The notes below the pieces were generated by a model, which searched no databases, was not told the DNA's origin, and saw nothing but the letters and a program-made list of their open reading frames with translations. The translations under genes and the position numbers were made by a program. A stretch of DNA of 64,000 nt. Origin: a phage. The DNA lies in sequence record PX104379.1. One strand, given 5' to 3'. This document shows positions 32,480 through 33,407 of this stretch, one piece after another (within the stretch, counting starts at the first letter, position 1; each line of letters starts with the position of its first letter).

Positions 32480-32506
32480 TTTATTCTCCTTTGTTTGTGT
32501 AAGATA

Positions 32507-32536
32507 ATACTATCACAAAGGAACCATACTGTAAAC
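32507..32536 (-). promoter_or_regulatory. Candidate early promoter upstream of 110-aa ORF
   Basis: Minus strand GTTTACA, 17-nt spacer, TAGTAT. Confidence 0.35.
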
Positions 32537-32554
32537 AACTTTGTGCAATCTTTG

Positions 32555-32584
32555 GAAAATAAAAAAGGACTCCCGAAGGAGTCC
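32555..32584 (-). terminator. Intrinsic terminator after the 72-aa basic ORF
   Basis: Minus strand GGACTCC-TTCG-GGAGTCC followed by TTTTTTATTTTCC. Confidence 0.7.
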
Positions 32585-32589
32585 TCAAC

Positions 32590-32808
32590 TTATGCTTTCT
32601 GCTTACCAAAACGAGAAGCATCATCTCGAAGAACCGCACGTGCTCGGCGCATGATCTTCTCAACAGTTTGATTGATACGAGAGTTCGACCCACGCTTGTA
32701 GCCAGCGCGTTTAGAATCACCAACTTTCTTTTCAACTGCTTTCTTTGCTTTAACTTGTTTTGCCATTATAAATTCTCTTTTAAATGAAAATGCAGGACTT
32801 ATTGGCAT
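32590..32808 (-). CDS. Small highly basic protein, 72 aa
   Basis: K/R-rich ORF followed by strong hairpin terminator; an overlapping alternative-frame ORF is less likely. Confidence 0.5.
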   Translation of the reverse strand: MPISPAFSFKREFIMAKQVKAKKAVEKKVGDSKRAGYKRGSNSRINQTVEKIMRRARAVLRDDASRFGKQKA

Positions 32809-33011
32809 TGCCTGCGCAAGCCCTCAAGGGGAACATAGGTTTTTGGATATTTAACGACCAGGATAACCATAAACCCGTCATCATTCACATTCAAGAGGTA
32901 CACCATAAAACTGCCGGGGTCTTAAAACTATAATGATTCGCAAATCATTAATCAGACAGTTCGATGGCTCCTCGATTTTAGCTCACACTAAGGCAGTGAA
33001 TCTCCAATAAA

Positions 33012-33260
33012 TTACTTCAGTGTTACCACAAAGTGACGAACTGCTTTTCGTGCAGCAGAAGCCAAAGGCTTAGCATATTTAAGTTCATCTTTTTCCTGAA
33101 GCTCAGCAGCTAATGCAGTTTGAGCAGGATTCAGATGTTTGAAATAACGCAGGATTTCAAGAGCTTCGGCTTCAACATCAATAGATGCGCCATAGTTTTC
33201 GTGACCATTATTCCATGCGTTTCGTTGCAGTTCAAGAGCGTGTTGTAATTGTTTAATCAT
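33012..33260 (-). CDS. rIII: RIII lysis inhibition accessory protein
   Basis: 82 aa; position upstream of gene 31 and sequence as recalled. Confidence 0.8.
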   Translation of the reverse strand: MIKQLQHALELQRNAWNNGHENYGASIDVEAEALEILRYFKHLNPAQTALAAELQEKDELKYAKPLASAARKAVRHFVVTLK

Positions 33261-33407
33261 TTAAAAATTCTCGTTAGAGATTAAAACTCGGTAGTCACGT
33301 TCTTCTGAATTTCATCTTCTTTCGACAGATCTCTCAGTTGTAGACTACCACATAGAATTGTTCGGTTAACTTATTATTCCGACACCCAATTCATATTATT
33401 ATTTATA

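Follow-up and report, generated by a model that had tools for sequence, protein, structure and literature searches.

What lies between genes rIII and 30.9 of T4-type phages, in a gap that in reference phage T4 has so far been treated as plain intergenic DNA? We consider this question for the 64,000-nucleotide (nt) stretch of phage DNA in sequence record PX104379.1 (henceforth the window, meaning the whole of that stretch, in whose coordinates positions are given), which we assign to a Tequatrovirus with the T4 layout. All features of the locus described here are on the minus strand, where 245 nt run from the rIII stop codon to the conserved start codon of 30.9 (32767–33011). An initial annotation had suggested that this spacer could hold an RNA structure, and a covariation check bears the suggestion out: the spacer contains two covarying pseudoknots and several covarying hairpins. 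We propose that it is an island of small RNAs serving as antitoxin mimics or decoys, a tentative reading to which we give a probability of roughly 0.4 and under which the T4 copy is perhaps a weak or latent representative.

The element that ties the spacer to toxin–antitoxin (TA) systems is module E (32975–33005), a single ToxI-like pseudoknot unit (GGAGAUUCACUGCCUUAGUGUGAGCUAAAAU), or ‘pseudo-ToxI’, recognized through positional orthologs and covariation. The window unit (GGAGATTCACTGCCTTAGTGTGAGCTAAAAT) stands directly after the rIII stop codon, as do clearer E copies at related loci L154–L157; it is the positional ortholog of these and of the L010 unit, and the orthologs in L154–L157 are what link it to ToxI. 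The unit of the Klebsiella-type locus L010 (GGTGATTTGCTACCAAAGTGCAGCTAGAAAT) matches 66 small mobilizable plasmids in 3–10 places each, with 93.8% identity over 32 nt; plasmids carrying the matching arrays come from E. coli, Salmonella, Klebsiella, Yersinia, Pectobacterium, and Serratia. On pNMEC-O75B, 5.6 tandem 36-nt repeats (consensus AGGTGATTTGCTACCTTTAAGTGCAGCTAGAAATTC) are found directly upstream of an annotated ToxN/AbiQ toxin gene.

An alignment of ToxI with eleven units of T4-type phages and two of T5-like phages has both pseudoknot stems paired in 91.8% of cells vs 81.0% in shuffles (a level reached by 0 of 500 shuffles). The covariation score was 0.427, with slid registers giving no more than 0.105, and both sides change at three of the seven pairs. 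The window copy keeps stem 2 through two such both-side changes. At the level of sequence and covariation, module E is a diverged homolog of the ToxI antitoxin RNA, the 36-nt pseudoknot with which type III TA abortive-infection systems (ToxIN) neutralize the endoribonuclease ToxN, a suicide nuclease of the bacterial host. No toxN gene is next to it, its neighbors being rIII and 30.9, as would be expected for a phage mimic.

ToxI-like units are present in 200 phage records belonging to several unrelated families. In the T5-like Vibrio phage JSF10 (locus L363, 2502–2551), such a unit fills the gap between tRNA-Lys and tRNA-Arg, and in the T5-like Klebsiella phage pzk-kv7 (L362, 2495–2570) two units follow tRNA-Ile, together with a truncated tRNA-Ile copy. 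This placement directly between tRNA genes suggests that single units are released by tRNA-processing enzymes.

The second pseudoknot, module A (32830–32886), was delimited with a covariance model and covariation as a 57-nt H-type structure, larger than ToxI and similar to it in topology. It is built as a hairpin, P1, whose loop pairs with the sequence 3' of a linker of the form GUUAAAUAYCCAAA. In the window, P1a occupies 32874–32879, the 5' strand of the pseudoknot 32865–32873, P1b 32856–32862, the conserved linker (GUUAAAUAUCCAAA) 32842–32855, and the 3' strand of the pseudoknot 32834–32841. Module A was found in all 43 of the rIII–30.9 spacers examined, with strongly conserved loop and linker sequences.

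Its covariation was scored on an unfitted MAFFT alignment of 30 distinct sequences, in which 80.5% of cells are paired, compared with 66.9% in shuffles (0 of 500 reach the observed value), and the covariation score is 0.394 vs 0.172 for shuffles and 0.06–0.13 for slid registers. At two positions of P1, pairing is kept in all sequences by three different pair types, and in the pseudoknot four pairs have changed on both sides. The pseudoknot taken alone, with a sequence-only anchor, is paired in 77.3% of cells vs 69.7% (0 of 2000 shuffles reach this). The frequency of G-U pairs indicates that the structure is formed by RNA of the gene-sense strand. The covariance model yields one significant match in the window (63.8 bits, E 5e-12) and recovers all T4-type loci plus two other contexts. 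In one of these, the 55-kb uncultured phage contig L043, the 58 nt that separate tRNA-Asp from tRNA-Pro, within a cluster of 12 or more tRNAs, are filled exactly by module A; in the other, a 38.7-kb contig, the module lies about 220 nt after a tRNA-Ile. In the window copy, one base bulges out of the pseudoknot; the L043 copy shares this bulge together with a compensatory change from G:C to A:U.

Modules E and A are parts of a mosaic. Spacers of relatives, which measure 120–416 nt, are composed of recurring short modules whose order differs between phage genera: in the window, module E is followed by a hairpin displaying GGAG, an AU-rich hairpin with a U-run, a conserved segment, module A, and hairpins C1 and C2, whereas other genera have the orders A-E-B-C, C-B-A-G, B-A-C, C-A-D, and F-A-D. 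The window holds one copy each of modules A, C1, and E. The modules shuffle as autonomous units and can stand alone between tRNA genes. Such reshuffling and the lone copies between tRNA genes fit autonomous small-RNA modules better than a single cis-acting leader, and the position of A or ToxI-like units in tRNA-gene gaps of unrelated phages suggests that they are excised as small RNAs.

On the reading that we propose, the spacer would be a transcribed non-coding island of independently folding RNA modules and not an ordinary leader. The island would be made early in infection on the rIII/30.9 transcript, ending at the strong terminator after 30.9, and the modules would be cut from this transcript as small stable RNAs—by tRNA-processing enzymes in T5-like and other phages, and by host or phage RNases, or the toxin itself, in T4-type phages. 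Once freed, the RNAs would mimic antitoxins of host RNase toxins or be decoys for such toxins; C1, C2, and a stem sequestering the Shine–Dalgarno sequence of 30.9 would additionally shape the translation or stability of the 30.9 mRNA. We infer the excision of the modules, their binding to toxin, and any protective effect.

The closest precedent is pseudo-ToxI of the Pectobacterium phage PhiTE, which, like module E, is a phage-encoded, intergenic, non-coding ToxI copy without an adjacent toxN and with a low copy number in the wild type (PMC3475682). The 1.5 intergenic pseudo-ToxI repeats of PhiTE are expressed and neutralize ToxN once expanded (PMC3475682, PMC3594212), and the single ToxI-like unit of T4-type phages could be a seed for expansion of the same kind. 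PhiTE differs in being an rv5-like phage with near-exact repeats whose activity against ToxN after expansion has been proven by experiment. Module E of T4-type phages, by comparison, is one unit, much more diverged in the window and located among other structured modules at a fixed locus. Bacterial ToxI shares with the phage units the 36-nt unit sequence (94% in the Klebsiella-phage copies), the two-stem interdigitated pseudoknot, and its compensatory changes, but forms a tandem array of 3–10 units directly upstream of toxN and is processed by ToxN, whereas the T4-type phage units are single and lack a toxin gene.

Several observations weigh against an antitoxin-like role of the island. E. coli toxIN blocks wild-type T4, whose escape comes from amplification of tifA and not of the rIII–30.9 locus (PMC9391042, PMC10853763), and Serratia phages of the T4 family are likewise ToxIN-sensitive and escape by other routes (PMC5449768). 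The group to which those Serratia phages belong carries a variant of module E (compare locus L159). As both T4 and the Serratia phages are sensitive, a single unit gave no protection in those tests. In PhiTE itself, the functional ToxI RNA spans two repeats, and 1.5 copies are insufficient (PMC3594212). The diverged single unit of T4-type phages is probably too weak to protect on its own.

Further points on the same side concern the sequence of the modules. By direct alignment, window module E is about two-thirds identical to ToxI, too diverged for BLAST alone to link the two, and it keeps two of three stem-1 pairs, one having been lost. Each T4-type genome has one E unit, with no tandem repetition; a single copy is not a canonical ToxI array, yet a pseudo-ToxI-type seed still fits, the wild type of PhiTE having 1.5 repeats. 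AAAU is the recognition motif of ToxN, and direct reading of the window unit gives GCUAAAAUCG on its 3' flank, with no AAAU on the 5' flank. Folded as a single sequence, the whole spacer has an unremarkable energy (z = −0.34). The module A covariance model found no match in 80 pattern-selected bacterial loci, and whole spacers, compared by BLAST with plasmids and E. coli genomes, showed no counterpart of modules A, B, or C there, only the ToxI-like part being matched. A scan of viral contigs for tandem arrays of module A gave chance matches and an unrelated 45-nt repeat only.

The main rival explanation, which we consider possible though on balance unlikely, is that the spacer is a cis-acting structured leader or intercistronic region that controls the processing, stability, and translation of 30.9 mRNA, with gp30.9 perhaps binding its own leader and the likeness to ToxI being a relic. 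Ribosomal proteins and T4 gp32 bind their own leaders, and module A resembles the pseudoknot operator of T4 gene 32 mRNA and the leaders of ribosomal proteins in being an H-type pseudoknot in a 5' leader near a gene for a basic protein that binds nucleic acid or, in the case of gp30.9, may bind it; gp30.9 is very basic, and in T4-type phages 30.9 always accompanies module A. This rival also draws on the fact that in most lineages C1, C2, and a Shine–Dalgarno-sequestering stem directly precede the 30.9 start.

Hairpin C1 (32817–32834; GUUCCCCUUGAGGGCUUG), found by folding and conservation, is one of the two GC-rich hairpins of the spacer; most lineages have kept it, in a place before C2 or else immediately behind the rIII stop codon. 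Hairpin C2 (32792–32815; GCAGG...CCUGC) was recognized by folding and compensatory stems, which vary by lineage with pairing kept (GGGAGC/GCUCCC, GGGAAC/GUUCCC, GUGGAG/CUCCAC, AACUGG/CCAGUU, and GGCGA/UCGCC). Folding further pairs the 30.9 Shine–Dalgarno region with an upstream pyrimidine run (32773–32790; UUUUC...GAGAA), and equivalent stems exist in other lineages (UCC/GGA, CCUC/GAGG) and before rIII (CCUC/GAGG, UCUC/GAGA). The spacer between genes 31 and rIII has a similar covarying hairpin with a Shine–Dalgarno-sequestering stem, and the 30.9 protein was left unclassified in T4 proteomics, which is compatible with tight translational control.

Other observations speak against a cis-acting leader. 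The distance of module A from the start codon varies from about 60 to 300 nt, its order relative to the other modules changes, and it occurs elsewhere without the gene, all of which separates it from the gene 32 operator and the ribosomal leaders; both A and ToxI-like units are found between tRNA genes with no 30.9 nearby. In the distant phage L161, none of the modules accompanies the 30.9 homolog, whose early promoter is a plain one. Finally, compensatory changes preserve the ToxI-like pseudoknot from genus to genus, which speaks against a relic.

An improbable second rival accepts that the modules are stable small RNAs, in the manner of T4 RNAs C and D, and denies them a TA function: they might interact, for example, with ribosomal protein S1, RNases, or the machinery of tRNA processing or repair, with module E sharing no more than ancestry with ToxI. 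The position of modules between tRNA genes in other phages agrees with this, as does the fact that the tRNA cluster of T4 already includes two stable RNAs to which no function has been assigned. These RNAs C and D, like phage tRNA clusters more generally, resemble the modules in giving small non-coding RNAs, presumably processed from polycistronic transcripts of RNA genes, and modules A and E of other phages occupy tRNA–tRNA gaps. The conserved loop and linker of module A also suggest a conserved partner, and RIII has been reported to bind ribosomal protein S1 (PMC9409239). However, the T4-type modules lie between protein-coding genes rather than in a tRNA cluster, no similarity to rnaC or rnaD is evident by eye, the modules have no known partner, and the sole module with an identifiable relative points to ToxIN.

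Very much less probable is that module A, by itself or with C1, belongs among self-cleaving ribozymes related to pistol or acts as a small pseudoknot riboswitch. In pistol ribozyme env25, a hairpin loop pairs downstream after the linker ‘GUUAAAUA’, and the linker of module A starts in the same way; small H-type pseudoknots with A-rich linkers, which module A resembles, are typical of preQ1-I and SAM-II riboswitches. Yet no match to pistol, preQ1-I, SAM-II, fluoride, or any other Rfam 15 family was obtained for the spacer modules, even at E values up to 10 on short stretches, and neither a P2 partner nor a G-U cleavage site was found downstream of module A, which is followed by different sequences in different phages and is separated from C1, or swapped with it, in many. 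The L043 copy lies between two tRNAs with no downstream open reading frame (ORF) to regulate. Least credible of all is that the spacer encodes small unannotated proteins, as the ORFs of 34 and 35 amino acids (aa) at 32780–32884 and 32799–32906 have no significant Pfam match and no PHROG family, indels and stop codons interrupt their frames among close relatives, and conservation follows paired nucleotides instead of codons.

The antitoxin-mimic or decoy role of the island can be put more broadly, in a form that we regard as rather doubtful: the rIII–30.9 spacers of T4-type phages and their equivalents in the tRNA-cluster gaps of other phages would together be an ‘RNA counter-defence island’, an array of cassettes for small pseudoknot RNAs, each serving as an antitoxin mimic or as a decoy for a host RNase toxin, with module E as the recognizable member and modules A and B aimed at defences not yet identified. 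If the island reading is true, a position between tRNAs enables the host enzymes of tRNA processing to free one functional unit with no need for tandem repeats, and such release is a simple mechanism suggested for single units. ToxI-like units at a fixed T4-type locus and in T5-like tRNA clusters would extend RNA antitoxin mimicry beyond one Pectobacterium phage to several major families. Modules A and, in relatives, B are strongly supported RNAs outside any class and are candidates for new anti-defence RNAs or regulators. These proposals are directly testable in T4, for which genetics, toxIN hosts, and transcriptomics already exist. ToxI-like units of T4- and T5-like phages go unmentioned in the PhiTE papers, a 2016 review of type III TA systems, the study of T4-family Serratia phages, and the two TifA papers; an earlier description is possible, the early rIII/30.9 literature lying outside this set.

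Module B, absent from the window, is a non-coding element of about 135 nt between rIII and 30.9 in 403 GenBank phages, T4-like phages of Klebsiella, Escherichia, Enterobacter, Serratia, and Yersinia (e.g. L157, approximately 1220–1370, and the L010 spacer, 1134–1500). It occurs essentially once per genome, is mostly unannotated, and is about 94% conserved, above the level of the flanking proteins. Visual inspection shows several stems with compensatory changes, a hairpin capped by GAAA, a long-range closing helix, and a 6-bp loop–loop interaction that covaries; Rfam has no match to it. More generally, Rfam 15 gave no family for any module when searched with the window region, 20 related loci, and a short spacer (E up to 10 on short stretches), and sub-threshold matches near the locus overlap only the 3' end of 30.9 and its terminator hairpin.

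Scanning for module A produced some observations of other kinds. Matches to its pattern in Photorhabdus were suspected to be TenpI antitoxin repeats and were ruled out, being inside a coding region. The AT-rich viral contig L366 (1560–1780) has a 45-nt tandem repeat (AAAAACTCGGAAGCTCAAATCTTATCGCCCGCTCGTTAAATAAAT) in 3–5 copies, unrelated to module A save for a short motif; in its period and layout, the repeat recalls type III antitoxin arrays. The tRNA cluster of L043 (6000–8500) contains an HNH-like ORF and several other gaps of 60–300 nt, one of which holds an unscored tRNA-like sequence; further small RNA modules may reside in these gaps.

The remaining parts of the window spacer are less distinctive. 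Between module E and the conserved segment lie a small putative hairpin displaying GGAG (UCGA-GGAGCCA-UCGA; 32961–32975), which is conserved in window-type spacers and in which no covariation was found, and an AU-rich 8-bp hairpin (UAAUGAUU/AAUCAUUA) followed by a U-run (32924–32950; −4.7 kcal/mol by folding). GGAG is the motif cut by T4 RegB, and any role of the first hairpin is putative. The L158 lineage keeps the stem of the second with changes on both arms and one compensatory pair; this hairpin is possibly a weak internal terminator or a 3'-end structure of rIII transcripts. The 3' end of the conserved segment (32887–32923) is the precise point at which relatives carry nothing, module G (about 50 nt), or module B.

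The initial annotation had also described the spacer as free of ORFs of 60 aa or more and as GC-richer than its surroundings. The former is correct for 32767–33011, in spite of the 34- and 35-aa ORFs; the latter holds against the window mean (41.9% GC vs 36.2%, standard deviation 4.3, at about the 90th percentile) but not against the flanking genes, at 40.6% and 44.1%. The GC-rich string that it quoted (59% GC) corresponds to hairpins C1 and C2. No tRNA genes were found in the window or in T4-type spacers, and no middle or late promoters were seen in the spacer when the sequence was read by eye.

The minus-strand gene order at the locus is cd, 31.2, 31.1, 31, rIII, the gap, 30.9, and 30.8, with annotated gene rIII (82 aa; 33012–33260, stop codon 33012–33014) upstream of the spacer. 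Positions 32480–33300 are 100% identical to Escherichia phage FriedrichMiescher and match 956 phage records, and rIII, spacer, and 30.9 follow one another in this order at 43 of 43 related loci with an extractable spacer. Gene 30.9 is followed by an intrinsic terminator (32556–32586) whose 9-bp stem with five G-C pairs and a UUCG loop (32565–32586) precedes a U-run, as is characteristic of Rho-independent termination: a G+C-rich hairpin at a gene end with a U-run directly after it. With −16 kcal/mol, it ranks first among minus-strand candidates and fourth among all 28 of the window, and a G+C-rich hairpin with a T-run follows 30.9 in every lineage examined, with differing stem sequences; an earlier remark on a very strong terminator after the basic ORF was accordingly well founded.

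Beyond the terminator, a promoter scan places a T4-type early promoter for gene 30.8 (32507–32535; TTTACA, 17 nt, TAGTAT, with an upstream TG), and most lineages, including that of the window, have this arrangement of terminator and then early promoter after 30.9. Because these two elements follow 30.9, it is the last gene of the rIII transcription unit and not the first of the downstream operon, and the spacer is therefore not the junction between rIII and a downstream operon for which it had been taken. RNAs of T4 30.9 and rIII have both been classed as early (PMC9697503 supplement). The end of 30.9 resembles the PeSL cassettes of T4-like phages, in which an early promoter comes at once after a stem-loop terminator and which have been linked to modular shuffling (PMC2839356, PMC4122927); PeSLs, however, are DNA-level units of promoter and stem-loop flanking variable ORFs, whereas the spacer modules are promoter-less RNA structures.

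Gene 30.9 itself (32590–32766) encodes a basic 58-aa protein of unknown function that belongs to PHROG 1427. The 72-aa ORF that had been proposed here (32590–32808) does exist mechanically on the minus strand, but the conserved start is an internal ATG (32764–32766) giving 58 aa (MAKQ...), as in the annotation of T4 gp30.9. Across more than 40 related loci, only the MAKQ/MSK start is conserved, and the upstream 14-aa extension, annotated at the N-terminus in some records (AR1), differs or breaks in each lineage. The protein is as highly basic as had been claimed, with 19 lysines and arginines among 58 residues and a pI of 11.4; binding to nucleic acid or the ribosome, which the initial annotation read from this, is a possible role. 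Variable sites number 36, 32, and 53 at the three codon positions, and 42% of differing codons are synonymous; 30.9 thus evolves as a real coding gene, third positions varying most.

With 98% identity to the T4 gp30.9 homolog, the window protein matches the PHROG 1427 profile over its full length (E 3.5e-31) and has the SKRAGYKRGSN motif that is invariant in the gp30.9 family. No Pfam domain was found in it, and comparison with the PDB gave one weak match, to a helix of SlmA (E 0.14). A low-confidence AlphaFold model (pLDDT 67) consists of one long helix and an N-terminus that is basic and disordered. The family is small and restricted to phages, with 96 clusters at 90% identity and 23 at 50%; a metagenome scan for further 30.9 loci added no new diversity, and T4 omics data leave the protein unclassified (PMC9697503 supplement). 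In L161 (1400–1500), which lacks both rIII and the RNA modules, a 30.9-like gene lies directly after gene 31 with nothing but an early promoter (GTTTAC...TATTAT) before it; 30.9 is thus able to occur in the absence of the island.

In AP011113 and other records, spurious overlapping or antisense ORFs are annotated across the locus (32481–32735 and nearby), e.g. ar1_214 and ar1_216, and some records name 30.9 homologs ‘1,4-alpha-glucan branching enzyme’ and their neighbors ‘tail fibers protein’; these odd ORF calls and names look like propagated misannotations. The spacer between gene 31 and rIII (33261–33407) is built in the same modular style. A late-promoter-like sequence (TATAAATA) comes just after gene 31, then a long hairpin (GGTAGTC...GACTACC; approximately 33285–33345) homologous to the long form of C2 in other genera and with compensatory inner stems, and after it a Shine–Dalgarno-sequestering hairpin that reads UCUC/GAGA here and CCUC/GAGG elsewhere.

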